Positions 2,088-16,541 of a DNA stretch of 16,541 nt are shown here, one piece after another. The translations under genes were made by a program, and so were the position numbers. Each line of letters opens with the position of its first letter. Positions within the stretch are counted from its first letter, which is position 1. Origin of the DNA: Candidatus Iainarchaeum sp. (lineage in GTDB: Archaea; Iainarchaeota; Iainarchaeia; Iainarchaeales; 0-14-0-20-34-12); assembly GCA_030649345.1 (NCBI GenBank), contig JAUSKK010000012.1:1-16541 (forward strand), read 5' to 3'. Under the pieces are notes generated by a model that made no database searches, was not told the DNA's origin, and saw nothing but the letters and a program-made list of their open reading frames with translations.

Positions 2088-2201
2088 ATCCAAACCCTTC
2101 CAGGGTTTCGATGCATCCGGGATGACGGATCTTCATTTCATTCGATCCATCTGTACTAAATTATTTCATCTTTTGCTGAATGGTCTTGACTTTTTTTATT
2201 G

Positions 2202-2228
2202 ATGATTTAAACTTTTTCATTAAATCAT
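2202..2228. terminator. 9-bp hairpin (ATGATTTAA / TTAAATCAT) between the convergent rps17e and dus genes; possible bidirectional terminator
   Basis: Perfect inverted repeat 2202-2210 / 2220-2228 with T-runs on both sides, lying 23 nt beyond the dus stop codon. The function is inferred. Confidence 0.3.
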
Positions 2229-2250
2229 GCGTACTTTTTTGGTTTTACAA

Positions 2251-2943: not shown

Positions 2944-2952
2944 ATTTTTCGC

Positions 2953-3046
2953 CTATATTTTTTGCACTGGTTTCGTTGACCCATGTCAGAACCTTAGGTT
3001 CCGACACCTCCTGAGATCAACTCATATTTTTTGCACTGGCTTTGTT
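2953..3046. repeat. Direct duplication of the rad50 3' terminus (2953-2977 vs 3022-3046, offset 69 nt) bracketing a 44-nt hairpin-containing insert (2978-3021)
   Basis: ATATTTTTTGCACTGG is identical in both copies. Read on the minus strand, both copies encode TKPVQKI plus a stop (TAG distal, TGA proximal). The insert carries the hairpin TGTCAGAACC/GGTTCCGACA (2984-2993 / 2997-3006, one mismatch) and, on the minus strand, GGAGGTG (3005-3011). Confidence 0.8.
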
Positions 3047-5394
3047 ATTCCGTTATTGTCTTTGTCTCGTTCTAAAACATACAATGTTCCAGACGCAGCG
3101 TTTTCCATTTCTTTTTCATGGGTAATCAAAAACACTTGGTCTACCAATTCAGGCAAATGTTCTCGCATCATTAAACTTAATCTTGCAATAATATTGGAAT
3201 CTAAATTATGGGTTGGTTCGTCTAAAATTAACCAGCCTAAATTTCTGGCTAAAACAAACGAGAAAGCTATGCGGGTAATCAATGCCGCAGTACTTTTTTC
3301 GCCTCCGCTTAAAGTTCCTTCAATGGGAATCCATCCCAATCCAGCTTTTTTGACTTTTAAATCATAACTGTTATCTGAAATATCTAATTTAATGTCTGTA
3401 AAATCTTTGTACGGATAGATTCGTTCCCATAAATCTTGCATGGCTTGATTAATGGTTTCAATTAAATACAATCTTAATTCGGCTTGCGTTTGCCCTAAGA
3501 CATTCACGAAAATGCTTAATTGTTCTTGGCTGTGTTTTAATTCGTCGATGTGTTCTTTATATTTTTGAACTTCGTTTTGTTTGTTTTTAGTTTCGTATAT
3601 TTTGGCTTCCATTGTTTGACTGAGTTCTGTTAACATAGCAATTTCTTGTGTTATAAATTTTTCTTCTGCCTTGGTTTGTTCTAAGTGAGTCATACTTTCT
3701 TTGTATTCTTTTTCTGAAAAATTTAATGTATTTATTTTCTTTTGAATTTCCTGCAATACTTTTTCTGCGTTCTCTAATTCAGGTTGTTTTTGTTCCAATT
3801 CCAATGCTTGTTCCAGCTCTTTTAGGGTGTGTTCTTTTTCTTTAATTCTTTGTGCACTAAATTCTGTTGCTAATTTTACCATTATTTGCAGGTGTTCTTT
3901 TTCTTGCTCTTCTAAGACGTGCTGTTCTTTTTTTGATTTTTCCAATAATTCAAAGCTTTTTTCCAGCATTTCCAAGGTGTTGGATTGGTTTGCTTTCTTT
4001 TTTAACTCAATTCGCATTTTTTCAATTTCTTGTTTTTGATTGCGTATTGTTTCTTCCAGTAAAGCTATTTGTTCTTTGCATTGTTTTTTTTCATGAACAA
4101 TTTGTTCCAAGTTTTTGTTGGCATCGTCCATTACTTTTTGCATTTCATTTTGTTCTAGTTTTTTTCTGCACACTGGGCAATGCGCCCCGGCTTTTTTTAA
4201 AGAATTCAGGTTGTCATTTTCTTCGCTTTCTTTTCCTTCCAGTTTTCCAAAATTTTCTCTTCCTTGATTGAGTTCCTGGTGAATGTTTTGCAGGTTTTCA
4301 TCTATTCTTTTTAGGGTTTCTTCACTTTCTTCTATTTGTTTTTTTAGTTCTGTTTGTTTGGTGTACAATTCTTGTGTTGTTTTAATTCCTTGCGGAAGTT
4401 GATCTAAAATGGCGTGAATTTCTTTTTTTAATTTATTTAATCCTGCTTGAATTTGATGCTGTTTTTCTTCCAATACTGCTTTTTGTTTTTCTTGTTCTCG
4501 TATTTGTTTTAACTCTTGTGTGGTTTGTTTGATTTTTTCCTCCAGCTGCATCCGTGTTTCTTTCAGATATTTGCTGGTTTGAATTTCTTTTCGTAAATTT
4601 TCTATTTGAATTTGTGTGTGTGTTAGATTTTTTTGCAAGTTTAAAAATTCGGCTTGTTTTTCTTCCCATTTTCTTTGATTCAATACAAGCTTTTCTAGGT
4701 TGGCTGGAAATTCTTGTTTTTGCAAGTGTTTTTTTTGAATGTGTTCTTTAGTTTGCTGGGCTTTTTTTTCTAAATCCTGCAATTCAAGTACATTGATTTG
4801 TTGTTCCATTGCTTGCGCAAATTGTTCTCGTTCTTCAGCTAAAGTTTTGATTTTATTTTTGACTTTTACGGCTAAGCTTCGTGCAGTTTCGTATTTTTCT
4901 AAATCTAAAATAGAGTCAAATTTTTCTTTTCTTTGAGCTGCCGGCAGCCGCAGAAAATAATCGATATTATTTTGTTCGGAATAAATAGCCCGGGCAAATA
5001 AATCGTAATTAAATTCTAAAATATGCTCTAGTTTTTCAGTGACTTCTTTTACTTTTGGGCCTGCAATCAAGCGGTTGTTTTCAAGTAATTTGGCTTGCGG
5101 TGTTTTGTTTCTGTAAATCGTGCGTTCTAAAGAATACGTGTTTTGATTGTGTTTGAATTCGAGTTCAATTTTTGCATAATCTTGTAAATGCGGAGTATTC
5201 ATAATTAATTGTTCGATTTGAGTTTCTCTTCGTTGGATGGCCGGAAAGGTTCCAAACAAGCCATAACAAATAGCATCCATGACACTGGTTTTTCCTGAAC
5301 CGGAATTTCCAATCAATACATTGGTGCCTTGCGTGAATTCAAATTCTGAATCTTTGTGGGTCCGCCAGTTTTCTAGTTTGATTTTAGACAGCAT
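3022..5394 (-). CDS. rad50: DNA double-strand break repair ATPase Rad50
   Basis: 790 aa. It has an N-terminal Walker A (GNSGSGKTS), a long Glu/Lys/Gln-rich coiled coil with a central CxxC zinc hook (AHCPVCRKKL), a C-terminal ABC signature (LSGGEKS) and a Walker B (LILDEPTHNLD). Confidence 0.93.
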   Translation of the reverse strand: MLSKIKLENWRTHKDSEFEFTQGTNVLIGNSGSGKTSVMDAICYGLFGTFPAIQRRETQIEQLIMNTPHLQDYAKIELEFKHNQNTYSLERTIYRNKTPQAKLLENNRLIAGPKVKEVTEKLEHILEFNYDLFARAIYSEQNNIDYFLRLPAAQRKEKFDSILDLEKYETARSLAVKVKNKIKTLAEEREQFAQAMEQQINVLELQDLEKKAQQTKEHIQKKHLQKQEFPANLEKLVLNQRKWEEKQAEFLNLQKNLTHTQIQIENLRKEIQTSKYLKETRMQLEEKIKQTTQELKQIREQEKQKAVLEEKQHQIQAGLNKLKKEIHAILDQLPQGIKTTQELYTKQTELKKQIEESEETLKRIDENLQNIHQELNQGRENFGKLEGKESEENDNLNSLKKAGAHCPVCRKKLEQNEMQKVMDDANKNLEQIVHEKKQCKEQIALLEETIRNQKQEIEKMRIELKKKANQSNTLEMLEKSFELLEKSKKEQHVLEEQEKEHLQIMVKLATEFSAQRIKEKEHTLKELEQALELEQKQPELENAEKVLQEIQKKINTLNFSEKEYKESMTHLEQTKAEEKFITQEIAMLTELSQTMEAKIYETKNKQNEVQKYKEHIDELKHSQEQLSIFVNVLGQTQAELRLYLIETINQAMQDLWERIYPYKDFTDIKLDISDNSYDLKVKKAGLGWIPIEGTLSGGEKSTAALITRIAFSFVLARNLGWLILDEPTHNLDSNIIARLSLMMREHLPELVDQVFLITHEKEMENAASGTLYVLERDKDNNGITKPVQKI

Positions 5395-5442
5395 ATAGTG
5401 TTTGGGTTAGAAAAAGTGTAAAAACAGGTGCGCGAAATTTGC

Positions 5443-5646
5443 TTAGAGTAGACTCATTCCTTCAACTCGCGTGCGTAAATGAAACTTTGTTTCATTGCGC
5501 ATTAAAACCTTGCGGTTTTAATCGCGGGTTGGTAGCACGTGGTGCAGTTAAAATCAGCAGATTTTAACGCACATTAAAACTAATGAGTTTTAATTGTGCT
5601 TCCACTTCGTTTCAGTACCACTAAATTAGAGTAAACTCATTCCTTC
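5443..5646 (+). mobile_element. Expanded (162-nt core, 5464-5625) member of the GC-rich hairpin element family, flanked by a 21-24 nt duplication of the ef1b 3' end (5443-5463 vs 5626-5646)
   Basis: It contains the shared 19-mer GGTTGGTAGCACGTGGTGC at 5527-5545. The outer stem is CAACTCGCG (5463-5471) / CGCGGGTTG (5523-5531). The second stem is GTGGTGC (5539-5545) / GTACCAC (5615-5621). Four nested AT-rich hairpins lie at 5478-5496, 5501-5522, 5547-5568 and 5573-5594. The distal repeat encodes VEGMSLL plus TAA, against the real C-terminus IEGMSLL plus TAA. Confidence 0.6.
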
Positions 5647-5889
5647 GATTTCTACGTCAGCTATTCCTTTGATTTTGCGAAGTTCTGTGGCTAGAGTTTC
5701 AGCTAAACCTTCGTTTCCTTCAGGGACAATAACTCCCAAGCGAATAGCTACTAATCCAAAAGCCATGGGTTCAAATTTTAGGTCCATAAGTTGTCCGATT
5801 TTAATTTTTCGGATTTCAGTTTCAAGTGCTTTTTCAATCCCGGGTTCTTCGGGTGAAACTTTTAAAATAACAAAAGTATCTGCTGGCAT
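5626..5889 (-). CDS. ef1b: Translation elongation factor aEF-1 beta
   Basis: 87 aa, the typical size. EPMAFGLVAIRL and a C-terminal ...VEIEGMSLL match the aEF-1beta family pattern. It lies immediately downstream of a small Zn-ribbon gene, as is common in archaea. Confidence 0.85.
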   Translation of the reverse strand: MPADTFVILKVSPEEPGIEKALETEIRKIKIGQLMDLKFEPMAFGLVAIRLGVIVPEGNEGLAETLATELRKIKGIADVEIEGMSLL

Positions 5890-5904
5890 AAGCTTATTCC
5901 TGTT

Positions 5905-6066
5905 TTAGGGTCCCTTAAAGCCACAGTCTGAACAAGTGTATGGTGTGCTTTTGTTTTCGCAGTCCATACAGCGTAAAATTCGTGTTTTAAGACAAGCAGG
6001 GCACTTAAATTCAATGTAGTCTCGGATTATTTCTCGATTGCATGTTTGACACTTTTTAATTACCAT
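5905..6066 (-). CDS. Small zinc-ribbon protein (COG2888-like predicted RNA-binding Zn-ribbon protein usually linked to ef1b)
   Basis: The 53-aa product MVIKKCQTCNREI...FKCPAC...RCMDCENK...YTCSDCGF has four CxxC pairs. I trimmed the 101-aa track ORF to the ATG at 6064-6066 because the longer version runs into the tRNA gene. AGGTGG lies 8 nt upstream of this ATG. Confidence 0.7.
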   Translation of the reverse strand: MVIKKCQTCNREIIRDYIEFKCPACLKTRILRCMDCENKSTPYTCSDCGFKGP

Positions 6067-6129
6067 TAAAAACCACCTAAATATCTTCTTTAAAAAAAGA
6101 ATTGAATAACTATTAATTAATGAGAATGA

Positions 6130-6137
6130 TTTAAAAA
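6130..6137 (+). promoter_or_regulatory. TATA-box candidate (TTTAAAAA) for the tRNA-Arg gene
   Basis: It lies 23-30 nt upstream of tRNA position 1 (6160), the canonical archaeal TATA-to-start spacing. Confidence 0.45.
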
Positions 6138-6159
6138 GATAAGTTAAATCAGTCTCTTT

Positions 6160-6269
6160 GGGCCAGTGGCGCAACCTGGACAGCGCGTTCGGCTTCGGAA
6201 CGATTTTCATTTTATGTGAAATCGTGTGCAGTTACCGAAAGGTTGTGGGTTCGAATCCTGCCTGGCCCG
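6160..6269 (+). tRNA. tRNA-Arg: tRNA-Arg (anticodon UCG) with a 35-nt intron after position 37; no encoded CCA
   Basis: I folded it by hand. Acceptor stem GGGCCAG/CTGGCCC; D arm GCGC-AACCTGGACA-GCGC; anticodon stem TTCGG (6188-6192) / CCGAA (6235-6239); loop CT-TCG-G...A. The variable region is AGGTT, the T arm is GTGGG-TTCGAAT-CCTGC and the discriminator is G. The 3' end is followed by CTCC, so CCA must be added enzymatically. Confidence 0.8.
6199..6233 (+). other. tRNA intron at the canonical 37/38 position (boundaries ambiguous by 1 nt)
   Basis: 35 nt interrupt the anticodon loop. There is an internal hairpin CGATTTTCA / TGAAATCG. I could not confidently draw a bulge-helix-bulge motif by eye. 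Confidence 0.6.
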
Positions 6270-6274
6270 CTCCC

Positions 6275-6362
6275 CTTTTCTTTTTTCTAAAAAGAAAAGT
6301 GTAAGTTGTTTTCAAATTCCCAAGAATTTGAAAAATTATCAAAATTTGTAGATTTTGATAAT
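6275..6362. repeat. Three consecutive perfect 11-bp AT-rich hairpins between the tRNA 3' end and the cca 3' end
   Basis: Hairpin A is 6275-6285 / 6289-6299 (CTTTTCTTTTT/AAAAAGAAAAG). Hairpin B is 6309-6319 / 6324-6334 (TTTTCAAATTC/GAATTTGAAAA). Hairpin C is 6335-6345 / 6352-6362 (ATTATCAAAAT/ATTTTGATAAT). The T-run of hairpin A starts 6 nt after the tRNA end, which fits oligo-T termination. Confidence 0.75.
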
Positions 6363-6384
6363 TCCCAAAAGAAAAAACCGCAAA

Positions 6385-7758
6385 TTAGTAGTCTAAAAAT
6401 TCTTCCTTTCCTTTCAAGAATTGAGTGAAGTATTTTTTGAATTCAGAATTTTTCTTGCATAAAGCCAATATCTTTTTTTCGTTCAATAATTCGGACTTCT
6501 TTAATGCTTTTTTCAAAGGTTGTTTTTCAATATTATTTTTACATGCATGGACAATTAATTTTTCTACTTGATAAAATTTTCGTAATTTTTCAATCACCCA
6601 GCGTCCTTCTTCAATTCTGGGGCCTGCCAAGCTTTTTTTATGTGCTTTTAAAAACTTTTCAGAATTTTCTTTGTCCGTAACTTCTGGTCCGAAATGATTT
6701 TTTACTTGATCAATGGTTTTGCTATGCATGTCTATGATAATGGCCATGCATTGTTTTTCATCGCTCCAGTCGTCTAATCTATCTACGTTAAATCCATTTA
6801 GTTCTAGCTGAATTTTTAATTTTTTAGAAAATCTTCTTAACTGTCCATGAACAATGTCACTCACCATGTCTGAAGTGTACGGCATGGTTAAAACAATTAA
6901 GTTTTTCTCCGCAGAGTATTTTTTGATTTTATTTAATGGCCACGAATGTTTTTTATTTTCAAAAAAGAAATCCAAAGAAGGTTTTTTCAAATAGGCTCTA
7001 GCGGCGGCAATAAATCGTGCAAATTGATTGTAGGATAACGCACTGGCTACATTTCTATTTTTGTCGGTTGGGTCAACTACAATTAAGTGGTGCTGAAATT
7101 TTTTTCTAGTATCTGTTTCGGTTTCATATTGTTTTTCTAAATCAATGATTGTTTCTTTTTTCCAGATGCTGACTGCTTTTAAACATTTTTCAAAACTTCC
7201 GTATTGGACAATTAATAATTCGACCACATAACCCGGCATGCTGGATACTTTAATTTTAGCTCCATAACAATTAATTCCTTTTAAGAATGATTTCAGCAAG
7301 CGTACTTGGTCTTTCATTTCTTCGGTTAATTTTTTTTCCAGCCAAGCTTGATGAAACGGTGATCTGTCCACAGCACTTTGGAGTTGGTCGGCTTTTTCTA
7401 CTTTGTAACTGGGCACAATTTCAATTTCATATCCTTGAATATTTCCTCGAATATAGGGGTGTTCTGCAAATTGTTGTTTCCAAGTATGGTTTTTGAAGAC
7501 TGCTTTTCCTAATTTGAGTCCTTCTTTTTCAAATTCCACACGAGTTAATTCTTTAGGGTATTGGACAAAAATATCTATGTCTCGATCTTTGCGGACATGC
7601 GTATTTCGAGCTAGACTTCCGCACAATAAAACATTTACATGAGGCCCTTTCATTTTCTTGATTTCAGCCATTACTTTGCTGGCGATTTCCAGTTCTTGCT
7701 GGAGTTCATTCGGCGAAGGCTTGATTTTGCTGATTACTTTTTTTTCCAAGGCATTCAT
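6385..7758 (-). CDS. cca: CCA-adding enzyme (class I archaeal tRNA nucleotidyltransferase)
   Basis: The family pattern is present: an N-terminal helical region, then CGSLARNTHVRKDRDIDIF (the GS...DxD nucleotidyltransferase motif), then the AEHPY and SAVDRSPFH motifs typical of archaeal Cca. I set the start at the ATG at 7756-7758 (MNALEKKV...). The track start at 7806 is a TTG lying inside a promoter-region repeat. Confidence 0.87.
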   Translation of the reverse strand: MNALEKKVISKIKPSPNELQQELEIASKVMAEIKKMKGPHVNVLLCGSLARNTHVRKDRDIDIFVQYPKELTRVEFEKEGLKLGKAVFKNHTWKQQFAEHPYIRGNIQGYEIEIVPSYKVEKADQLQSAVDRSPFHQAWLEKKLTEEMKDQVRLLKSFLKGINCYGAKIKVSSMPGYVVELLIVQYGSFEKCLKAVSIWKKETIIDLEKQYETETDTRKKFQHHLIVVDPTDKNRNVASALSYNQFARFIAAARAYLKKPSLDFFFENKKHSWPLNKIKKYSAEKNLIVLTMPYTSDMVSDIVHGQLRRFSKKLKIQLELNGFNVDRLDDWSDEKQCMAIIIDMHSKTIDQVKNHFGPEVTDKENSEKFLKAHKKSLAGPRIEEGRWVIEKLRKFYQVEKLIVHACKNNIEKQPLKKALKKSELLNEKKILALCKKNSEFKKYFTQFLKGKEEFLDY

Positions 7759-7791
7759 GTATAAATTCAATGTGTTGAATAAATAAAAGAG

Positions 7792-7893
7792 TATCTTTGT
7801 TTCCAATTGAATGTCTTATTTAACACTCAATACTCCGGAACATGCAAAAAGATATTTTTGTTTCCAATGGGTGTCTTATTTAACACTCAACAC
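7792..7893. repeat. Imperfect direct repeat of about 42 nt (7792-7833 vs 7853-7893) in the divergent cca / ATPase promoter region
   Basis: TAT[C/T]TTTGTTTCCAAT, then 4-5 variable nt, then an identical 18-mer GTCTTATTTAACACTCAA, then [T/C]AC. The period is 60-61 nt. Each unit contains TGT-N10-ACA dyad symmetry around a TATTTAA core. Confidence 0.8.
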
Positions 7894-7946
7894 CTTGACT
7901 TAATCTTAAATAGGAGTTAATGAATAGTGTTACCTAGGAAGAGCGT

Positions 7947-9518
7947 GTGTATATGGGTTCGATTACAAAGTCTAATAAACTTTCAAAAAATGTATTGGAT
8001 GCGTATGACTTTATTGAAATTTTAGAAAGTTTTCCATTTAATGAATATCATTTTAACGGTTATTCTTTAAGTGCTGAAGATCAAAAAATCACAGATGGTT
8101 TGTCTGCTTTTTTTTCTAGAAAACTTTCTTTGGAAAAATTGCGTTCGATTTTAACGTTTTCTAAAAAAGAAGAATTTTTGCAGGAATTTAGCGTGATTGT
8201 GCAGTCCGTAGAAGCCGACCAATTATTGGACTTACTGCCTTTGCCGGAGAAAGTGGCTGCTTTAGAAAAATCACTGCAGGAAATTTTTTCTAAATATTTT
8301 GCCCAAAAATCCAATGCTCTTGTTTTAGCTCAAATGGTAGTAGACAATTCTGTTGGTTTTGGAGAACTAGCTCCTTTGCTGCGGGATGAACATTTAGAAG
8401 AAGTCATGGTAAACTCAGCCCAAAAACCAGTGTTTGTTTTTCATAAAAAATTCGGAATGTGTAAAACCAATATTGTAGCAACCCATGAACAAAATTTGCG
8501 TTCTTTAATTATTCGAATTGCCAAGCATAGCGGAAAAGCATTTGATGAAATTAATCCTTTATTGGATGCCCGCTTACCGGATGGCAGTCGTGTGAATGCT
8601 ACTTTGTCCACCATAACTCCTTCAGGCACTAGTTTGACTGTGCGAAAGTTTACTAAAATTCCTTTATCGATTGTGGATTTTTTAGAAAAAAAAACAATCA
8701 GTTACGACTTGGCAAGCTTTTTGTGGTTAATGGTAGAAGGCATGACAATTGAGCCTATGAATATTATTGTAACTGGAGGAACAGGCTCGGGCAAAACAAC
8801 TTTATTGAATGTACTAAGTACTTTTATTCGTCACTCAGATAGAATTGTTTCGATTGAAGATACTTTAGAGTTAGATTTGGGAACCCGGGAAAATTGGATT
8901 CAAATGGAAGCTAAGCCTAGCATTCATGGAAGTGTTCCTGTGACTATGGATGATTTATTAAAAAATTCTTTGCGTATGCGCCCAGATCGTTTGGTGGTTG
9001 GAGAAGTCAGAGGCGAAGAAGCGCAAACTATGTTTGCAGCCATGGATACAGGTCACAAAGGAATTTTGGGAACCTTGCATTCAAATTCTGCCCGTGAAAT
9101 GTTGGTTCGATTGAAAAGCAAACCTATGTCTGTTCCGAATAGTATGCTGCCTTTGCTGGATTTAACTGTAGTCATGTTTAAAATGTATGATCGAGAAATT
9201 GGTGTTCTGCGAAGAATCAAAGAAGTTTCTGAAGTTTCCCGAATGGAAGACAAAGTTTTGCTGAGCACTGTATTTGAATGGGATAAAGGAAAAGACGATA
9301 CCGGAAAAACCGATGTTCCCAGTCACTTGTTTGATTATTTAGCTGAAAAATCCAATATGACGAAAACTCAATTGCGTGCCGAACAATTGGTTCGTCAAAG
9401 AATTCTTCAATGGCTGGTGGAAAACAAAATTAAAGACAGCAGGCAAGTAGAAGAAGTCATTCAAGAATATTATATTCATCCAACCAATATTTTGGAAAAA
9501 ATATCTAAAGATTTGTAG
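7947..9518 (+). CDS. Type II/IV secretion-family ATPase (archaeal FlaI/ArlI / PilB / VirB11-like hexameric ATPase)
   Basis: Walker A is VTGGTGSGKTTLLN. It is followed by IVSIEDTLEL, RMRPDRLVVGEVRGEEA (Walker B/Asp box) and GHKGILGTLHSNS (His box), the canonical GspE/FlaI motif series. The track start is a GTG at 7947, with an alternative ATG at 7953. No adjacent FlaJ/PilC-type membrane partner is present. Confidence 0.85.
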   Translation: MYMGSITKSNKLSKNVLDAYDFIEILESFPFNEYHFNGYSLSAEDQKITDGLSAFFSRKLSLEKLRSILTFSKKEEFLQEFSVIVQSVEADQLLDLLPLPEKVAALEKSLQEIFSKYFAQKSNALVLAQMVVDNSVGFGELAPLLRDEHLEEVMVNSAQKPVFVFHKKFGMCKTNIVATHEQNLRSLIIRIAKHSGKAFDEINPLLDARLPDGSRVNATLSTITPSGTSLTVRKFTKIPLSIVDFLEKKTISYDLASFLWLMVEGMTIEPMNIIVTGGTGSGKTTLLNVLSTFIRHSDRIVSIEDTLELDLGTRENWIQMEAKPSIHGSVPVTMDDLLKNSLRMRPDRLVVGEVRGEEAQTMFAAMDTGHKGILGTLHSNSAREMLVRLKSKPMSVPNSMLPLLDLTVVMFKMYDREIGVLRRIKEVSEVSRMEDKVLLSTVFEWDKGKDDTGKTDVPSHLFDYLAEKSNMTKTQLRAEQLVRQRILQWLVENKIKDSRQVEEVIQEYYIHPTNILEKISKDL

Positions 9519-9523
9519 GATTT

Positions 9524-9659
9524 TTATTTCAAACTTTTTTTTATTTCTTTTTCCAGTCTTTCAACCGCGGTGGCGGTTGGTAGCACGTGGTGCTTTCGCT
9601 TTGCTACAGCACCACTTTCTTTATTTTAATGTTTTTTTTATTTCTTTTTCCAGTCTTTC
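9524..9659 (+). mobile_element. GC-rich two-hairpin element (58-nt core, 9563-9620) flanked by a 39-nt duplication of the taw3 3' end (9524-9562 vs 9621-9659)
   Basis: Stem 1 is CAACCGC (9562-9568) / GCGGTTG (9573-9579). The shared 19-mer lies at 9575-9593. Stem 2 is GTGGTGCT (9587-9594) / AGCACCAC (9608-9615). The distal repeat encodes ERLEKEIKKSLK plus TAA, against the real C-terminus ERLEKEIKKTLK plus TAA (36 of 39 nt identical). The distal copy starts 5 nt after the ATPase stop codon. Confidence 0.65.
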
Positions 9660-10229
9660 CAGTTGCCTCAAATTTTTTTCTAATTTTTGATTGGCAATCT
9701 CAACTACGTGTTTCAAATATTTTTGTTCAATCAAAATAGTATTTTTTTCTTTGACTGGCAGTGAAATGGTTTGCGTGCCTTGGAATTCAGTTAAAAATTT
9801 TCCTTCTTTTGCAACCATAATGCCACCTCTTTTGATTCCGGCTTTTTTCATGGATTGAATAATTTTTTCTGCATTTTCCAACGAGTCTGTTCCTAAGTGT
9901 AAAATAAAGGAATCCATTTTGAACCAAACTGTTCCTTGAGTTTTTTCATTTAAGGATTTCCATATTTCTTCAAATTGTACAAATTCATGTTTTTTGAAAT
10001 GAAATAAGCTTTCGCGTTTGTCTTTTTCGTTTCCTTGCATGTCCAATAAAATAATTCTTCCAGAACAACTGGAAGTAGTGTAGTAGTTGTTTGTTTTAGA
10101 AATGTATTCACATAAAGAAATAATCGGGGTGTCCATGCGTCCAATGTTTAAAGCATGCTGAAAACTTTCCGTATGCCTTGATTTAATCATGCCAAATCGT
10201 GTTTCTGCCGTGCTTTTATGGGGTTTCAT
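9621..10229 (-). CDS. taw3: tRNA wyosine-derivative methyltransferase Taw3 (TYW3 family)
   Basis: 202 aa. DTPIISLCEYISKTNNYYTTSSCSGRIILL contains the TYW3-family S-x-CSGR signature. Confidence 0.78.
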   Translation of the reverse strand: MKPHKSTAETRFGMIKSRHTESFQHALNIGRMDTPIISLCEYISKTNNYYTTSSCSGRIILLDMQGNEKDKRESLFHFKKHEFVQFEEIWKSLNEKTQGTVWFKMDSFILHLGTDSLENAEKIIQSMKKAGIKRGGIMVAKEGKFLTEFQGTQTISLPVKEKNTILIEQKYLKHVVEIANQKLEKNLRQLERLEKEIKKTLK

Positions 10230-10280
10230 GTATACGAATCCTTTTAATAGTTTATTCTAAGAATAGTACTAGGGGTTTAT

Positions 10281-11057
10281 TTGTTTAAATATTGGGTATT
10301 ATTTTTATTTTGCTTAATTTTAGCCGCAAGTACTTTAGCTACTGTTGAAATGGTTGAACCCAAGCCCAGCAATGTTTTAGCCAATACTACAATTACTTTG
10401 GGGTCAGCTCAGCCTGGAGAATCTGTTAAATTGGTTTTAACCCGCGGTTTAGGCAGAAACAAATGGCAAGATGTACGCATTGATGCACTGTCTTTGCCTT
10501 CAGGTTGGACGTACGAAAAACAAATTCAAGATCAATCGTTTATTGTTTGGATTAAAGTTCCAAGTACAGCTAACTTGGATTCATATAATTTGAAAGTAAT
10601 TGTTTCTTCTGAACTTTTAACTGAATCTTTTAATGCGTTGCTTTTAGTTAAAGACGATTTATTGACTGTGTCCATGACCGACTTATTGCAATCTACTCAA
10701 GTTGGAGAATCTGGAACATTCAAAGTTTCCTTCCAAAACAATAGTATTGCTGCGCATAATTTAAAAATTTCCAGTGATTTACCCAGCCAATGGTTTGCTG
10801 AACAAACCTTAGAAATTTTACCCGGAGAATTTAAACAAATTGAATTATCGGTAACCACCCGAAGTTATGGAACTCGAGATTTTTCATTCACTCTTGAATC
10901 TACTTTGAATAATTCAAAAAAAGTATTTCCTGCAACTTTAACTATCCATCCAACTTTGAAAAGCAAATTTTCTGCAGTATTTTACGGCTTTCCTTTTCTG
11001 TCTTTGAGTTTGCTGCCGTATTATTTGATCGATGGCTTTTTGTCTTTGGTTCAGTAA
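10281..11057 (+). CDS. Predicted secreted or membrane-anchored protein (N-terminal signal or anchor, beta-rich ectodomain, C-terminal TM helix)
   Basis: TTG start. The hydrophobic N-terminus is FKYWVLFLFCLILAASTLA. The body is Ser/Thr/Asn-rich and repetitive, with beta-sandwich-like character. The hydrophobic C-terminus is FYGFPFLSLSLLPYYLIDGFLSLV. I recognise no family confidently. Confidence 0.6.
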   Translation: MFKYWVLFLFCLILAASTLATVEMVEPKPSNVLANTTITLGSAQPGESVKLVLTRGLGRNKWQDVRIDALSLPSGWTYEKQIQDQSFIVWIKVPSTANLDSYNLKVIVSSELLTESFNALLLVKDDLLTVSMTDLLQSTQVGESGTFKVSFQNNSIAAHNLKISSDLPSQWFAEQTLEILPGEFKQIELSVTTRSYGTRDFSFTLESTLNNSKKVFPATLTIHPTLKSKFSAVFYGFPFLSLSLLPYYLIDGFLSLVQ

Positions 11058-11071
11058 AATAATTTAATTAA

Positions 11072-11206
11072 TTAGCCCAATTTTTTTCCAACACCAAACC
11101 GCGGGGCCATGCCCCTCAGTTTTAGGTTAATCCTGATCCCTGATTGCAGTTCTGTTGAACTGCAGTACTTTGAAATTTGTTTTTTTAGTCTAATTTTTTT
11201 CCAACA
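11072..11206 (+). mobile_element. Diverged member of the hairpin element family (91-nt core, 11094-11184) flanked by a 22-nt duplication of the elp3 3' end (11072-11093 vs 11185-11206)
   Basis: The left terminus CAAACCGCGGGGC compares with CAACCGCGGTGGC in the taw3 copy. The right terminus CTGCAGTACTTT compares with CAGCACCACTTT. Internal hairpins are GGGGC/GCCCC (11103-11107 / 11111-11115) and ATTGCAGTTC/GAACTGCAGT (11143-11152 / 11157-11166). The distal repeat encodes VGKKLG plus TAA, against the real VGKKLD plus TAA. Confidence 0.55.
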
Positions 11207-12987
11207 TATATTCCGTCTTTTTGATAACCTAACTTGTAATAATATTCTCTTGCACCTACACCTGCAATGACTAAAAGTTTTTTGCAGTCCAATTCTTCGC
11301 TGGCAATCTTTTCAGCTGTCTCTAGCAATTTTTTCCCCCATCCTTTGTGCTGCATGACTTGCTTTCCTAATAATTGAGTATCCAAAGGAACTGTGGTTCC
11401 AAATACATGGAGTTCTCGAATGCCTGCTGTTTTTGGAGTAATTTCCGGCCGGAATGGTTGTGACGGCAATCGCAAGCGTATGAATCCAAACAATAAATTG
11501 TTTTGTGTGTTTTCTAAAGAAATGAAATATTCTAGTCCTTGGCTGGAGTCATATTTTTCAATTATAATTTCTGCATTCTCTAATCCTGATTCAATTCCTT
11601 GCTTGTAAGAAGAAATTCCTGCTTCTCTACAGCGAATGCATTGGCAAACAATTTTTTTGTTTTTCAATTCTTCTTCCACCAATTGTCTTAAATTGTTTTT
11701 ATTAATTCCAGTGGACGCGAGTTTAACTGGAATGTCTCTTTGCACCCGATGAACTCTGCAGTATTTTTGAATATATTTTTTTCCTTCAGCAATAATTTCT
11801 GCAGCTGCTTCTGTTTCTAAAGGTGTGAATTCTCCGCGTTCCCATAATTTCTGTAAAGGAGTTCCAGGCATGACCATGCAAGGGTAAATTTTCAATCCAT
11901 CCGGCCGATAATTTGGATTGGCAAATAATTCTTGAAACATTTCAATATCTTGTGTTCGATTGCTTAATGGCTGGCCAGGCATAATGTGAAAAACAGTTTT
12001 CAAAAAACTATCCTTGGATAATTGCACAGCTTCCATGGTGTCTTGGATTGTATGGCCACGGTTGGTGTATTTTAATATTTTATCTTGCAGGCTTTGAACT
12101 CCAATTTCGACTCGCGTACAACCCAATTTTAGCATTTGATCTAAGTGTACTTGTTTGCACCAGTCTGGTTTGGTTTCAATGCATAAAGTAACACAACGAA
12201 TCTTCGCATGTTCATTTCGTTGATGTTCGTGTTCTAGATTTAAAATTCCTTTTTCGCTTAATAGTTTGTTTTTAATTTCTGTTCTAACTTTGGGATCGTG
12301 TTCATTTAAAGGCAAATTAAAATATTCTGAAAATTTTTCGAAGTCAATTTCTTGGGTTTCTGAATTGTAAAATTTTTCTCCAAAATCATTCATGGCTTTA
12401 AACGAACCCGTAATAAATTCTTCTTGATATCCTTTCGGGAAACTGGGGAATGTTCCGCCCATGACAATGAGTTCTACTTTGTCGGCTGTATGGCCTGTGG
12501 ATACGTATTGCGTTAATCGATTAATGGTTTGAAGATAGGCATCATAGTCATTCAAGATTGCGCGCATGCTAGCAGGTTCGTTTCCAGTATAACTTTTAGG
12601 AATGTCTCCAAAAAAACTATTTAAGCCACCTGGACAATAAATACAAGTTCCATGTTGGCAATTGATAGGCTTGGTCATAATGGCAACTGGCGTAACTCCG
12701 CTGAGAGTTCGCACTGGCTTAATGCCCAATATTTTGCTGAGTTGTTTAAAGTTTTTTCCAGTATATGCTAAAATATCAGGGTCTGAAGGCATTTCTGTTA
12801 AGTTTAATTCATGGCATAAATCCATTTTGAGTCTGTTAAGTTGTCGTTTGTTTTGAATTTGCCCAGAACCAATAGCTTCGACAATTGTCTGTGCAATTCT
12901 TCGTATTTTGTCTTGTTTCTCAACCGCGGTCTCGGTTGGTAGCACGTGGTGCTTAACAGCACCACTGTCTTTGTTTTGTTTCTGCAT
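11185..12987 (-). CDS. elp3: Elp3-family tRNA uridine(34) modification enzyme (radical SAM + GNAT acetyltransferase)
   Basis: 600 aa. It has the radical-SAM cysteine cluster CQHGTCIYCPGG, a conserved TIM-like core (VELIVMGGTF, RVEIGVQS) and a C-terminal GNAT region (QHKGWGKKLLETAEKIA). Residues about 5-25 are encoded by the inserted element at 12906-12983. Confidence 0.92.
   Translation of the reverse strand: MQKQNKDSGAVKHHVLPTETAVEKQDKIRRIAQTIVEAIGSGQIQNKRQLNRLKMDLCHELNLTEMPSDPDILAYTGKNFKQLSKILGIKPVRTLSGVTPVAIMTKPINCQHGTCIYCPGGLNSFFGDIPKSYTGNEPASMRAILNDYDAYLQTINRLTQYVSTGHTADKVELIVMGGTFPSFPKGYQEEFITGSFKAMNDFGEKFYNSETQEIDFEKFSEYFNLPLNEHDPKVRTEIKNKLLSEKGILNLEHEHQRNEHAKIRCVTLCIETKPDWCKQVHLDQMLKLGCTRVEIGVQSLQDKILKYTNRGHTIQDTMEAVQLSKDSFLKTVFHIMPGQPLSNRTQDIEMFQELFANPNYRPDGLKIYPCMVMPGTPLQKLWERGEFTPLETEAAAEIIAEGKKYIQKYCRVHRVQRDIPVKLASTGINKNNLRQLVEEELKNKKIVCQCIRCREAGISSYKQGIESGLENAEIIIEKYDSSQGLEYFISLENTQNNLLFGFIRLRLPSQPFRPEITPKTAGIRELHVFGTTVPLDTQLLGKQVMQHKGWGKKLLETAEKIASEELDCKKLLVIAGVGAREYYYKLGYQKDGIYVGKKLD
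12906..12983 (+). mobile_element. Compact member (48-nt core, 12921-12968) of the hairpin element family inserted in frame in the elp3 5' coding region, flanked by a 15-nt direct repeat (12906-12920 vs 12969-12983)
   Basis: Stem 1 is CAACCG (12921-12926) / CGGTTG (12933-12938). The shared 19-mer lies at 12934-12952. Stem 2 is GTGGTGCT (12946-12953) / AGCACCAC (12958-12965) with loop TAAC. The repeat offset is 63 nt, or 21 codons. The reading frame stays open across it (..MQKQ-NKDSGAVKHHVLPTETAVEKQ-DKIRR..). Confidence 0.65.
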
Positions 12988-13025
12988 ATATAATATAATA
13001 ATATAGGGAACATTTTATTTGTAGT
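12988..13025. promoter_or_regulatory. 38-nt divergent promoter spacer (ATATAATATAATAATATAGGG...TTTTATTT) between elp3 and the 13026 ORF
   Basis: It consists entirely of A/T-rich TATA-like sequence between two divergent ATG codons. The spacing implies very short or leaderless 5' UTRs. Confidence 0.4.
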
Positions 13026-13373
13026 ATGACCAAAAATCTAGTGGCTGTGGTTGGTGCTGGAAAAGGCACTTGGGGGCATTTAGCTCGATTAATTGATTCT
13101 GAATCTTTTGGAACAATTTTGCTGGTTAGCAATGATTTTGGAAAAGAAAACTTTAAGCCAGCCAAGCCAGTGGACTGGTTGTTGTTGAATTCTCGTTCTG
13201 GTTTTGAAGTTTTAAAAAATGCCATTAAAGAAAAATTGCCGGAAGGCGAATTAACTGTTTCTATTATTTCTGGCACAGGCAAAGAACACATGGCTTTATT
13301 GACTGCCATCAAAGAAGCTAAAGTCAAATTTGAATATGTGATCTTAACTGGCGACGGGACTAAATATTATTAA
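13026..13373 (+). CDS. Hypothetical small Rossmann-like protein, 115 aa
   Basis: Clean ATG-initiated ORF. It has an N-terminal beta-strand plus Gly-rich loop (LVAVVGAGKGTWGH) and a later ISGTGKEHMALLTAI, which weakly recalls the Gly-rich loop and [ST]xxx[KR] motif of CARF-like ligand-binding Rossmann domains. That resemblance is not secure. Confidence 0.55.
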   Translation: MTKNLVAVVGAGKGTWGHLARLIDSESFGTILLVSNDFGKENFKPAKPVDWLLLNSRSGFEVLKNAIKEKLPEGELTVSIISGTGKEHMALLTAIKEAKVKFEYVILTGDGTKYY

Positions 13374-13411
13374 TTTTTTGAATTCTTTTTTAAAAGTAGA
13401 TTGCTGTTAGT

Positions 13412-13834
13412 TTATTCTTTGGTTAAAGAAATTCCTTCAATAATTACATTGCCGGTTCCATCTTTGACTTTAACTTTGGGATGGTTTTCTTCTATTTCAA
13501 ACACGATTTTGTGTTGGGGCTGAACCAATGTTCTGTAGGCATTGTGATTGAATAAGCCTAAACACATAGTTTCTTTGCCTTTAACTTTGCATTTTCCTTC
13601 TTTGACTACATAGGTTTCAATTTTTCCTTTTCCTAAGCCTAAATTGAGAACACTATCTCCTTTTTCTGGTTTAACACTATACGTTCCTTCGGTTTGTTCT
13701 TCAGTAGTCATGTCAAATTCTTTCCAAAAACTAGTCCCGTGTCTGGAAAAACTTCCATTGTTTTTGAATTCAAAGTCTCGTTTATGATTTGGGCCTTGTT
13801 CAATCCATTTTCCAATAAATTCTGTGTTCGCCAT
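13412..13834 (-). CDS. Hypothetical protein, 140 aa, beta-rich (lipocalin-like feel); no family recognised
   Basis: ATG-initiated ORF with an AT-rich upstream region (TTTAAAAAG at about 13870). The Lys/Gly/Glu-rich alternating pattern suggests a beta-barrel. I recognise no motif. Confidence 0.55.
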   Translation of the reverse strand: MANTEFIGKWIEQGPNHKRDFEFKNNGSFSRHGTSFWKEFDMTTEEQTEGTYSVKPEKGDSVLNLGLGKGKIETYVVKEGKCKVKGKETMCLGLFNHNAYRTLVQPQHKIVFEIEENHPKVKVKDGTGNVIIEGISLTKE

Positions 13835-13883
13835 GTTTTTCCTTAATTTATTATTAGTTTAGTTTGTATTTAAAAAGCTAATT

Positions 13884-15467
13884 CTATGATCGCTCGTATG
13901 TTCTTTTTTCAATGGTTTGCTGAATGGGTGAATTTTCTTTTCGTTCTTCGAATGCAATTTGAATTAATTTTTCTCCAGCCGGTGTTGGATACTTTCCAGT
14001 CAAACAAGCAGTGCATAAGCTATTCTTGGGTTTTCCAATGGCTTCCACTAAATGATCTAAAGTTTGATATTGTAAAGAATCTGCTCCAATATAGTTTCGA
14101 ATGCGTTCCATAATTTCTTCGGATAATTCTTTTCCTGAAAATTCCTGTAATTCTTTTTTAGTCATAACATTGTTGGCAGTCAATTCATTCATGGTGCTCA
14201 TATCAATTCCATAAAAGCACGGAAATAATATAGGAGGGCAAACTACGCGCATATGCACTTCTAATGCTTTTCCTTCTGTGCGAATATAATTCACTAAAGT
14301 TTTAGCTGTAGTACCTCGAACAATACTGTCTTCGACCAAGATTACTTTTTTTCCACGCAATACTGCTTTATTTAATGTAAATTTGGCTTTGACTTTTTCC
14401 ATGCGTTTGTGTCCTTCAATAAACGTTCGGCCAATATATCGATTGCGAATTAATCCTTCTTGGCTGGGTAAACCCATCTGCAAAGCATACGCGTCTGCAG
14501 CTGGCTTGGCTGTATCTGGTACAGGAACTACAATTGTATTTCCGTCAAATTTTGTTTTTTCATTTTTAGCTAACAATTCACCTAATTTATAACGTGCATT
14601 GTAGACACTGGCTCCATCAAATTCACTGACTACGTTTGCAAAATAAACCCATTCAAACATGCAGTGCTTGAATTCTTTTTTGGGAGCAAATCGTTTTACT
14701 GTAATTGAACCATTTTCGATTTGAGCTAAATGTCCGGGTTCTAAAACTTTAATATCCTCTACATCCATGTTCGTTAATGCTGCAGTTTCACTGGCTGCAA
14801 AAACTACATCGTCTTTTTTTCCATACACTAAAGGCCGAAATCCAAATGGATCTCGAAATAAAGCAAGTCTTCCATCAGCGTCTACATAGGCTGAACTATA
14901 AGCACCGTCCCAGTCTTTGGATGCATTGCCTACAACTTCGCTTAAATCTTTTTTAATATCTCCAGCCATTTCGCGTGCAATAAAATGCATCATGACTTCA
15001 GTGTCTGTATCTGTAAACAAATGATAACCGTTTGAATTCAAATCTTTTTTTAATTCTGAAAAATTAGAAATCTGTCCATTGAATGCATAACTAAACCATT
15101 TCCATTTTCTTCCATGCATTCGTTCTATGGGCATGGCACTGCAAGTATCATTGGTTCCACAGGTTGCATAGCGTACACTTCCAATTCCTTTAATGCCGGA
15201 ATATTTTTGCATAATGCTTAAATGTTTTCCTTGATGGTGTGCACGAAAAGCAGTCGGCACAGTTCCTAAATCTTTAAAAGTATTCAATAATTCTTGTCGC
15301 TTTGGATTATAGGTTGTCAATCCAGCACTTAATTGTCCTCTATTTTGTTGTTGTAAAAGCAGGTTATAAATGTAAAAAGCAGCTCCGCCTACAGGATGTT
15401 TGTCTAATGAACTTTCCAGACTGACTGCAGCAATTCCGCAATTTTCGTTTAATTCTTCAGCAGTCAT
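13884..15467 (-). CDS. purF: Amidophosphoribosyltransferase (glutamine-PRPP amidotransferase, PurF family)
   Basis: An N-terminal propeptide precedes the catalytic Cys (NENCGIAAV), as in class II Ntn glutamine amidotransferases. The PRPP-binding PRTase loop is KKVILVEDSIVRGTT. C-terminal Cys residues (CTACLTGKYP) are typical of PurF. Confidence 0.9.
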   Translation of the reverse strand: MTAEELNENCGIAAVSLESSLDKHPVGGAAFYIYNLLLQQQNRGQLSAGLTTYNPKRQELLNTFKDLGTVPTAFRAHHQGKHLSIMQKYSGIKGIGSVRYATCGTNDTCSAMPIERMHGRKWKWFSYAFNGQISNFSELKKDLNSNGYHLFTDTDTEVMMHFIAREMAGDIKKDLSEVVGNASKDWDGAYSSAYVDADGRLALFRDPFGFRPLVYGKKDDVVFAASETAALTNMDVEDIKVLEPGHLAQIENGSITVKRFAPKKEFKHCMFEWVYFANVVSEFDGASVYNARYKLGELLAKNEKTKFDGNTIVVPVPDTAKPAADAYALQMGLPSQEGLIRNRYIGRTFIEGHKRMEKVKAKFTLNKAVLRGKKVILVEDSIVRGTTAKTLVNYIRTEGKALEVHMRVVCPPILFPCFYGIDMSTMNELTANNVMTKKELQEFSGKELSEEIMERIRNYIGADSLQYQTLDHLVEAIGKPKNSLCTACLTGKYPTPAGEKLIQIAFEERKENSPIQQTIEKRTYERS

Positions 15468-15506
15468 ACTGACTTATTTTCTAAACTGTTTATTAATTCG
15501 TCTATG

Positions 15507-16541
15507 CTATTCAACCCGATATCTTAGAATGGCAACCATTCCACCTAAGCCTAATAATTTTTTGCCGGGTTCGTTTTCTGTATTAAAAATATGGACTTTT
15601 CCGTTTCGTTTCTCGCATTGATTCATAATTTCTTCAATTTCGGTTTTGTTTTCAATCAATGTTTTATCTGCAATTAACAAAAAATCAATAGCCCCCAAAT
15701 TCAAAGCAGTCTTTACTTCTTGTAAACCATACGTAACCAAGCCAGTCTGGTTGCCCAATTCTTTTAAAGTTCGATCCATCAGCTGAGTTTCCACTGCTTG
15801 CTCTGTTTCTTTCAAAATAGACTGCATGCTTTTACTTTGCATGAGTTCTTCCAAACCAGTAACTCCTAAAGAAGAAATTCCTTCTCTATAAATTTTTCCA
15901 ACAAAACTTTTTTCCAAGAGTTTGTGCAAGTCTTCTTTTTCAAATCCTGGTCCTGAAATAATTAAAATTTTAGGATTCATTGTTTTGATTTTGGTTTCAA
16001 TTTCTGAAAAATATTTTTTTTGCCATTCTTCTTCTGCAAAATGTTTTCCTGTTTTTCCAGATTTAATGGTCAGCTTGTGTTCTGTTTTGAATTCTTTGAT
16101 TTCATAAAATTCTGCTTGCTCGTCATCTATCAATATTGCTAGTTTGCTTTCTTTGTGGACTGCTTCGACTGCTTTTTTTAATCGTTCTATTTGATAGTTT
16201 TTGATTTCTTTTTTTTGCAAAGTCAATGCTTGTCCTAATTCAATTTCTAATGAATGATGGCTTTGTTTGGGCGCTAAATCTTCGGGTTTTCCTGCCAAGA
16301 CAATTCCTTGAATTCGTAACAAATTTGAATGTTTGTCAAAGTCTGCTTTTTCAATTTGGAGTTCTAAATACAATTTTACTCTTCGGTCTTCTTGTCCTTC
16401 GTTTCCTTTAATTTTTCGAGTGGTACTTCCTTGAGCAATATCTCCTTTTTCAATAATTTGCATTAAATGCCATAAATCATCCAATACTTCTGGAACCAGA
16501 ATAATGACTTTTTCGTACTTGTTAATTTTAACAATTTTCAT
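15507..16541 (-). CDS. pelA: Pelota (aDom34) mRNA surveillance / ribosome rescue factor
   Basis: 344 aa. The N-terminal ...LVPEVLDDLWHLMQIIEKGD is the characteristic Pelota opening (e..dDlWhLyniI..GD). The C-terminal eRF1-like domain ends in ...GGMVAILRYRV. The ATG coincides with the last 3 bases of the window. Confidence 0.9.
   Translation of the reverse strand: MKIVKINKYEKVIILVPEVLDDLWHLMQIIEKGDIAQGSTTRKIKGNEGQEDRRVKLYLELQIEKADFDKHSNLLRIQGIVLAGKPEDLAPKQSHHSLEIELGQALTLQKKEIKNYQIERLKKAVEAVHKESKLAILIDDEQAEFYEIKEFKTEHKLTIKSGKTGKHFAEEEWQKKYFSEIETKIKTMNPKILIISGPGFEKEDLHKLLEKSFVGKIYREGISSLGVTGLEELMQSKSMQSILKETEQAVETQLMDRTLKELGNQTGLVTYGLQEVKTALNLGAIDFLLIADKTLIENKTEIEEIMNQCEKRNGKVHIFNTENEPGKKLLGLGGMVAILRYRVE

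Follow-up and report, generated by a model that had tools for sequence, protein, structure and literature searches.

A double-hairpin repeat in the reading frame of archaeal elp3 and duplicated gene ends on a compact contig

An insert near the start of elp3

The 16,541-nucleotide contig JAUSKK010000012.1 of Candidatus Iainarchaeum sp. (assembly GCA_030649345.1), analysed in full and called the window here, is an AT-rich (GC about 34%), very compact archaeal contig that carries rad50, EF1-beta, an intron-containing tRNA gene, cca, a gene for a FlaI-like ATPase, taw3, elp3, purF and aRF1. The elp3 coding sequence lies on the minus strand (11185-12987, ATG at 12985-12987) and specifies 600 residues with ELP3_N, radical SAM and GNAT domains; the product is the metagenome-assembled genome (MAG) protein MDO8427898.1 of NCBI, whose nearest homologues, at 59% identity, come from Iainarchaeum/Diapherotrites-type DPANN genomes. 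Twelve nucleotides downstream of the elp3 ATG lies a 48-nt double-hairpin element, copy C, which an initial annotation of the sequence had picked out as a repeat inserted in frame and which is the subject of this report.

Copy C (CAACCGCGGTCTCGGTTGGTAGCACGTGGTGCTTAACAGCACCACTGT) occupies 12921-12968 of the plus strand, encodes Elp3 residues ~7-22 on the minus strand, and has a GC content of about 55-60% against the ~34% of the contig. Its boundary is ambiguous by 1 nt, the C at 12921 or that at 12969. Hairpin 1 (12921-12938, plus strand) pairs CAACCG with CGGTTG around a 6-nt loop in both the minimum-energy and the centroid fold, and hairpin 2 (12946-12965, plus strand) pairs GTGGTGCT with AGCACCAC around the loop TAAC. 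Between them stands the invariant linker GTAGCAC (12939-12945, plus strand), which contains the tetranucleotide GTAG and whose reverse complement carries a GTG in frame with elp3 (codon 15, 12943-12945). The stems measure 6 bp and 8 bp, and the fold has an energy of -13.7 kcal/mol (z = -4.4 against shuffled sequences).

The element is flanked by two 15-nt direct repeats. R1 (TTTTGTCTTGTTTCT, 12906-12920) is contiguous with the rest of elp3 and reads (E)KQDK(I) on the minus strand, while R2 (CTTTGTTTTGTTTCT, 12969-12983) ends 1-2 nt from the ATG and reads (Q)KQNK(D). The two are identical at 13/15 positions with a start-to-start distance of 63 nt, a match whose background frequency at a given position and spacing in this window is 3.8e-5. 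Copy C plus one repeat comes to 63 nt, and the elp3 frame runs through it without a stop: the translation, MQKQNKDSGAVKHHVLPTETAVEKQDKIRRIAQ..., begins MQKQNKDSGAVKHHVLPTETAVEKQDKIRR, has the GTG codon as V15, and contains the stretch MQKQNKDSGAVKHHVLPTETAVEK. The initial annotation had reported the core with both stems, the flanking repeats, the stop-free 63 nt, the reading of the predicted protein and the GTG at residue 15, and all of these hold.

The same annotation had proposed that the 21-residue segment is specific to this lineage, and had named a homologous segment in orthologues as what would speak against an insertion. In an alignment of the 27 closest Elp3 orthologues no homologue of residues 5-23 was found; most of these proteins begin at window residue 24, 2-3 residues before the conserved K-x-x-x-F/Y...I-I-x-A-I-E-x-G helix. 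Likewise, in tblastn searches of 80 genomes residues 5-16 were never matched, and the matches in the closest genomes (~54-59% identity) start at residues 25-31; Pfam ELP3_N starts at residue 30. Deletion of the element with one repeat leaves MQKQDKIRRIAQTIVEAI, a typical Elp3 N-terminus, as had also been expected. These comparisons support the view that copy C is a lineage-specific in-frame insertion with a target duplication.

A family of repeats on the contig

A 19-nt core of the element, GGTTGGTAGCACGTGGTGC, occurs at 5527, 9575 and 12934, three times in 16.5 kb where none is expected by chance; 0 of 200 shuffled windows reached three core matches with up to 3 mismatches allowed. Copy C shares 19/19 nt with the copy beside EF1-beta (copy A) and 21/21 nt with the copy beside taw3 (copy B), in which the 21-mer CGGTTGGTAGCACGTGGTGCT stands unchanged at 9574-9594, as the initial annotation had noted.

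Copy B (57 nt, 9563-9619, plus strand) begins 1 nt downstream of the taw3 stop codon, between 40-nt repeats at 9523-9562 and 9620-9659 that are 93% identical and each encode ERLEKEIKK(S/T)LK and a stop. It differs from copy C by 3 substitutions and a longer hairpin 2 loop. Copy A (162 nt, 5464-5625, plus strand) directly follows the EF1-beta stop, and its 21-nt repeats (5443-5463 and 5626-5646) each encode EGMSLL and a stop. It retains the core, the long-loop sequence of copy B (TTYCRCTTYGYTWCAGYACCACT) and both outer stems, one of which gains a T-G pair while in the other a G-C pair becomes G-T. The loops of this GC-rich element hold three similar, nested AT-rich hairpins (ATTAAAAC..GTTTTAAT), namely ATTAAAACC..GGTTTTAAT, GTTAAAATC..GATTTTAAC and ATTAAAACT..GTTTTAAT, of a type found nowhere else in the window. 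The fold of copy A is very strong (z = -8.1), and its alignment to B and C is ambiguous.

The initial annotation lacked a further insert, D, as well as the long and variable duplications of gene ends described below. Insert D (80 nt, 11094-11173, plus strand) sits at the elp3 3' end between 33-nt repeats (11061-11093 and 11174-11206) that encode VGKKL(G/D) and a stop. Since each of these repeats specifies the Elp3 C-terminus with its stop codon, elp3 has inserts at both of its ends. At its 5' end insert D has the terminus AACCGCGG of A-C, and at its 3' end, like them, a CAGTAC..TTT terminus, ending in CAGTACTTTGA; its interior differs from theirs and forms two other hairpins.

All of A-D lie in one orientation and have defined, asymmetric ends, AACCGCGG or AACTCGCG at the 5' side and CAGYAC..T.. 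at the 3' side; no terminal inverted repeats were found at these ends. Copies A-C join their targets after YTTC. The family can be sought with the pattern AACCGCGG...GGTTGGTAGCACGTGGTGC...CAGCACCAC. The shared core shows that the elp3, taw3 and EF1-beta copies are one repeat family, with at least three or four copies on the contig, and that a member of this family lies in frame within elp3.

A near-palindrome, TTTTAACCCGCGGTTTAGG, was also seen at 10434-10455, within the coding sequence of a 258-residue hypothetical protein. Its 10-mer AAACCGCGGG recurs, in opposite-strand orientation, where insert D has its 5' end. It is without flanking repeats, and the resemblance is probably due to chance.

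Further copies were sought widely. The exact 19-mer core had no match in 185,579 species-representative genomes or among viral contigs, and only two in JGI metagenomes, both in unrelated GC-rich contexts and judged to be chance. With up to 4 mismatches allowed it was absent from the elp3 neighbourhoods of 80 related genomes (1.2 Mb), and blastn gave no match for copy A among plasmids or for copy B among phages. Concatenated six-frame peptides of the elements gave nothing at E <= 10 against 5.8 billion proteins, nor did a two-sequence peptide profile against 1.84 billion representatives, although such searches are insensitive for a 17-residue motif and these negatives are weak. Rfam 15 at E <= 1 yielded a tRNA at 6160-6269 as the only match over the window and none at the elements. 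Among the sequences searched, the element family is known only from this contig.

The source, a metagenome-assembled contig without close relatives (best Elp3 identity 59%), could hint at an assembly or binning artefact, or at an elp3 that is a decaying pseudogene. We regard both as extremely unlikely. Logan contigs of SRR13727527 are 100% identical to window positions 7109-15571 and 2089-7136, spanning all inserts, and because the two assemblies agree base for base, the structure is not the product of one assembler. (Extension of the contig with Logan assemblies recovered the same window and nothing beyond it.) The elp3 open reading frame (ORF) is complete, retains every column that is invariant in a 28-sequence family alignment, and is predicted with a confident fold.

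Translation start and the fate of the insert in Elp3

A TATA-like box, AAATAAAA, lies at 13013-13020 on the minus strand, -33 to -26 relative to the elp3 ATG. The four nearest relatives have an AATAAAA(A) box before their elp3 ATG at almost the same place (-33 to -26 in loci L004 and L077, -32 to -25 in L005, -30 to -23 in L006), a near-constant spacing across genomes with Elp3 proteins only 54-59% identical. Several other genes of the window have an A/T box ~27 nt upstream of their start codon, as is expected of leaderless mRNAs in archaea. The initial annotation had considered that the insert might be mere 5' leader or promoter DNA, and this fails, as the conserved box stands 26-33 nt before ATG 12987. 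No in-frame ATG, GTG or TTG separates the insert from M55 (codon 55), so only ATG 12987 and the element's GTG can start a protein whose ELP3_N domain is intact. Because of the conserved box-to-ATG spacing and the lack of a start between insert and codon 55, the insert is placed inside a transcribed and translated gene. We infer from the sequence comparison that the ancestral promoter-to-ATG geometry is untouched and that ATG 12987 is the start in use.

The other possible start deserves consideration. If transcription began inside the gene, the protein could start at the GTG of the element and carry ~11 extra residues (VLPTETAVEKQ). That codon is in frame with elp3, GTG and TTG starts are predicted for other genes of the window, and a second A/T-rich box, TATATTATTATATTATAT, at -19 to -1 of the elp3 ATG is TATA-like and would place the transcription start ~15 nt into the ORF. 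However, the AATAAAA box is kept at its conserved distance from ATG 12987, and the A/T tract is more simply explained otherwise: the divergent intergenic region (12988-13025) measures only 38 nt, each gene's box adjoins the start of the other, and the tract at -19 to -1 probably serves the divergent gene at 13026 as its promoter, with a box at about -36 to -21. Furthermore, in the mRNA the GTG directly follows the 3' arm of hairpin 2, and no Shine-Dalgarno-like sequence was seen upstream of it. We therefore think a GTG start quite unlikely.

With translation from ATG 12987, the element is predicted to encode a disordered tail and the first turn of the first ELP3_N helix. The AlphaFold model of the protein (mean predicted local distance difference test score, pLDDT, 86; predicted template modelling score, pTM, 0.86) shows residues 1-20 as coil with pLDDT 40-53 and the first helix at 21-40, and among solved structures the sequence matches Elp3 of archaea and eukaryotes (best E = 3e-154). 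Elp3 most likely works with the disordered 21-residue tail. The in-frame outcome also asks for little: two of three frames of the element are open in the sense orientation, and with one in three lengths divisible by three, approximately 1 in 5 insertions would be in frame and stop-free. Chance suffices for such an outcome at a tolerant site, and no special design is needed.

The initial annotation had further likened the insert to the byp elements of mitochondria and allowed that the 63 nt might be bypassed or removed. Conceivable routes are ribosome hopping between the duplicated AAA/CAA codons, RNA excision and DNA deletion between the repeats. At first sight several features fit. The triplets AAA and CAA recur identically 63 nt downstream, as take-off and landing codons should; a stable hairpin begins 8 nt after the first CAA; and the element resembles the bypassed GC-rich inserts of AT-rich mitochondrial genes (PMC8211752). 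However, the matching triplets are a trivial result of the target duplication, which copies them, and no stop or frame break follows the take-off codon, the 63 nt being stop-free and a multiple of three, so that hopping is neither signalled nor needed. As for RNA excision, the flanks are direct A-rich repeats and are not complementary, the fold has two separate hairpins, and the two junctions form no helix in it, so that the bulge-helix-bulge motif of archaeal mRNA introns, a junction helix with two 3-nt bulges, is absent; nor was there a match to an Rfam ribozyme or intron family. The bypassing examples cited in PMC8211752 come only from phage T4 and yeast mitochondria. Removal or skipping of the insert is thus very unlikely, and of the three outcomes proposed (tolerance of the 21 residues, restart at the GTG, and bypass or removal) the first, with the residues as a tail, is by far the best supported.

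We suggest, with a probability of roughly 0.65, that copy C represents a short mobile repeat of the non-autonomous type, which Elp3 tolerates as 21 extra residues in a disordered N-terminal tail. The mobile unit would be the two GC-rich hairpins joined by the GTAGCAC linker. From an ancestral elp3 that presumably began ATG CAG AAA CAA GAC AAA ATA... (MQKQDKIRR...), the element would have inserted in codons 2-6 and duplicated 15 bp of target, leaving the gene intact, as element and duplication together make 63 nt in a stop-free frame. The ancestral promoter would still drive transcription, with the mRNA starting at ATG 12987 or just before it (a leaderless or almost leaderless transcript), and translation would begin at that ATG and run through the element, with Elp3 gaining its extra residues before the first ELP3_N helix. 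The harmlessness of the tail, like the mobility of the repeat, is a likely rather than an observed feature of this locus.

Several points weigh against this proposal. No transposase, RAYT or TnpA/TnpB gene was found among the window proteins, and the core was not found in the other genomes, metagenomes, viral, plasmid and phage sequences searched. The case for mobility is anatomical, with neither a donor nor an empty site. The duplications of 15, 21 and 40 nt (C, A and B) are much longer and more variable than those made by ordinary transposases. Finally, it is a minority possibility that the TATATTATTATATTATAT box drives a start ~15 nt inside the gene, which would favour the GTG at codon 15.

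Duplicated gene ends and comparison with known elements

In all, six short inserts on the contig (A-F) are flanked by duplications of 15-40 nt, and in A-E the terminal codons of a gene are duplicated. The 21-nt repeat of A duplicates the EF1-beta 3' end (EGMSLL and stop in both copies), the 40-nt repeat of B the taw3 3' end (ERLEKEIKKTLK and ERLEKEIKKSLK, each followed by a stop), the 15-nt repeat of C elp3 codons 2-6, and the 33-nt repeat of D the elp3 3' end (VGKKLD and VGKKLG, each followed by a stop). Insert E measures 41-43 nt by repeat extension (~2978-3018/3020, in the region 2950-3046), has a weak hairpin and a sequence unrelated to A-D, and lies between the two copies of a ~25-nt repeat of the rad50 3' end that reads TKPVQKI in both, with TGA as the stop in one and TAG in the other; apart from these stops, all differences between the copies are silent, and the distal copy holds a AAAAATATA box upstream of the dus start (2943). 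Insert F has a 22-nt filler (7834-7855), likewise unrelated to A-D in sequence. Its 38-nt repeat, 79% identical over a duplication that spans 7796-7893, comprises the cca promoter and first codons (TTG GAA ACA AA), and the upstream copy opens a 15-codon mini-ORF.

When the insert and one repeat are subtracted, the ancestral spacers come to only ~5-80 nt, so that hardly an insertion could survive without restoring a gene end. Such restoration in turn explains how the inserts survive in a compact genome. The distal repeat copies plausibly persist because they also serve the neighbouring gene; those of B and D, for instance, hold an oligo-T tract after a convergent gene. Thus the two repeat copies appear to split originally overlapping jobs, one keeping the coding end and the other the neighbour's promoter or terminator.

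In A, B and E the repeat nearer the gene begins at the stop codon or 1 nt past it (5626, 9620-9623 and 3021-3024), and in C a repeat ends 1-2 nt from the ATG (12983-12987). For A, B, C and E, out of five inserts with duplicated terminal codons, repeat boundaries thus fall at the coding boundary or no more than 1-2 nt from it. Three candidate explanations for this regularity (n = 4-5) are that the duplication is the least that rescues the gene, that useless spacer was lost later, or that the mechanism is tied to the ends of coding sequences, as the position of the repeats could even suggest. An excess of silent differences between repeat copies (~7 silent, 3 replacement) cannot be told from what one constrained and one free copy would give, and was set aside.

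With one uniform filter applied throughout, repeat-flanked GC-rich inserts number 0.24 per kb here against a median of 0.046 per kb in 80 related loci, an approximately 5-fold higher density. One related Woesearchaeota locus (L015) gave 16 matches with this filter, for which our guess is a CRISPR or tandem array.

Rather than by transposition, the inserts could have arisen as by-products of break repair or template switching, a structured donor having been copied into a staggered break with duplication of 15-40 nt of flank and with the core as a favoured donor. All six inserts share the duplication of gene ends, yet only A-C share the core, D shares the termini only, and E and F are unrelated; the widely varying duplication lengths and the absence of terminal inverted repeats fit such an origin as well. 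In contrast, the defined ends of A-D and the YTTC junction of A-C are more consistent with recognition of ends than with random copying, no microhomology is consistent over the junctions, and no 9-mer of insert E occurs elsewhere in the window, so that a donor is not visible. We consider a repair origin unlikely; it would leave the reading of Elp3 unchanged.

In-frame structured repeats are well documented in bacteria (PMC3733652, PMC10969869), so a tolerated tail is ordinary and the initial annotation gave the elp3 insertion more weight than it merits. The Rickettsia palindromic elements (RPEs), like the elements here, are short, structured, non-coding repeats found both between genes and in frame in housekeeping genes, where the encoded peptide is tolerated (PMC10969869, PMC3733652). 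By their descriptions, however, RPEs are bacterial, ~100-150 bp long and built on a Rickettsia-specific consensus, with no long target duplications described, which sets them apart from archaeal elements of 48-57 nt (162 nt with nested hairpins) that have 15-40-nt duplications and an apparently unrelated sequence.

The GTAG-REPs of the REP/RAYT system share with the present copies a GC-rich imperfect palindrome preceded by GTAG. In that system the tetranucleotide stands at one end of a 20-40-bp imperfect palindrome, and REPs are found within ORFs too, also at the N- and C-terminal ends, with 20-30 residues encoded (PMC3733652). They are associated with a gene for the RAYT tyrosine transposase and present in high copy number, often as dimers. 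Here the GTAG, invariant in all three copies, is set 3 nt upstream from the 8-bp stem rather than at its foot; each copy stands singly and in the common orientation, not in an inverted dimer, and no Y1 transposase (RAYT) domain was found among the proteins of the 16.5-kb contig. REPs are not known to create target duplications.

The mobile GC clusters, double-hairpin elements and byps of fungal mitochondria are also similar, being 30-60-nt GC-rich hairpins in a compact AT-rich genome, some of them in coding sequence. In mitochondrial GC clusters, as here, stems are more conserved than loops, and yeast GC42 duplicates only 2 nt (AG) (PMC4478555); in hop elements a stop and a hairpin come after the take-off codon (PMC8211752). 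The elements here differ from GC42, hop and byp elements in their open frame and their 15-40-nt duplications. In byps, moreover, the frame is broken and the insert is skipped.

Long and variable direct repeats (8-514 bp) are documented in prokaryotes only for IS1549/IS1634, by a mechanism still unexplained; archaea have a diversity of IS1634-family members (PMC2266710). Those are full-length elements with a DDE transposase and terminal inverted repeats, whereas no transposase was found in the window and its elements lack inverted termini. Hairpin elements derived from the IS200/IS605 family have asymmetric hairpin ends without inverted termini, insert beside a short specific sequence and keep a uniform orientation, and the inserts here resemble them in their asymmetric hairpin ends, their insertion next to YTTC (A-C) and their single orientation. 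In that family TnpA, an HUH enzyme, recognises subterminal hairpins. The family is not known to make target duplications, whereas duplications flank every copy here, and TnpA/TnpB were not found in the window.

A classical MITE (miniature inverted-repeat transposable element), of the kind derived from DDE-transposase elements, has terminal inverted repeats of ~4-30 bp (PMC10969869). In the window elements the 5' end, AACCGCGGT.., does not match the reverse-complemented 3' end, GA(A/C)AGTGGTGC.., and a repeat search lists no inverted pair at the element termini. MITE target duplications have a fixed length for a family; direct repeats are present here, but with the three lengths given above for copies C, A and B. 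By sequence or defining features the elements appear to belong to none of the RPE, REP and mitochondrial GC-element families, although their behaviour matches them.

Other candidates were examined and rejected. A C/D-box small RNA is contradicted by the lack of C or D boxes in A-C on either strand. A tRNA-like element was suggested by the resemblance of GGTTGGTAG to a D-loop, and Rfam gave no tRNA signal at these sites. CRISPR off-target integration or a casposon does not fit, since inserts and duplications are of variable size and a single sequence has been inserted several times. The sequence CAGCACCACTT in cca (7085-7095) is not a remnant of the element, as it encodes the QHHL of QHHLIVVDPTD and reads as native cca.

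For Elp3 itself little changes. The elp3 insertion alone is an event of a known type, and what is unusual is mainly the set of long, variable duplications that rebuild gene ends: the spacers of this genome measure 5-50 nt, and no fewer than six short inserts persist in it, each with a 15-40-nt copy of the gene end that it interrupts. A tentative and rather improbable extension is that this DPANN-like archaeon harbours undescribed mobile DNA, in which tiny, asymmetric-ended double-hairpin elements make long (15-40 bp), variable duplications that rebuild a split stop, start region, promoter or terminator and so colonise an ultra-compact genome, the elp3 copy being one outcome of a genome-wide process. 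If this were true, with many copies with defined ends in a complete genome, selfish DNA would have a novel means of persisting in the reduced genomes of archaea, and there would be a second, independent case of long variable duplications besides IS1549/IS1634. For annotation, the locus is a warning that N-terminal extensions in such MAGs can be encoded by repeats.

Elsewhere in the window, the tRNA gene at 6160-6269 has a 38-nt intron and was found by an Rfam match of 49.5 bits, having been missed by ARAGORN. ORF 5905-6210, for a zinc-finger protein (Pfam match at residues 54-97), overlaps it on the opposite strand, and this overlap indicates that the true start of the ORF is probably further downstream. 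In a seemingly empty stretch of 666 nt, two short ORFs at 1662-1868 and 1878-2087 resemble, by their motifs, RNA polymerase subunit K/Rpo6 and ribosomal protein S17e, respectively.

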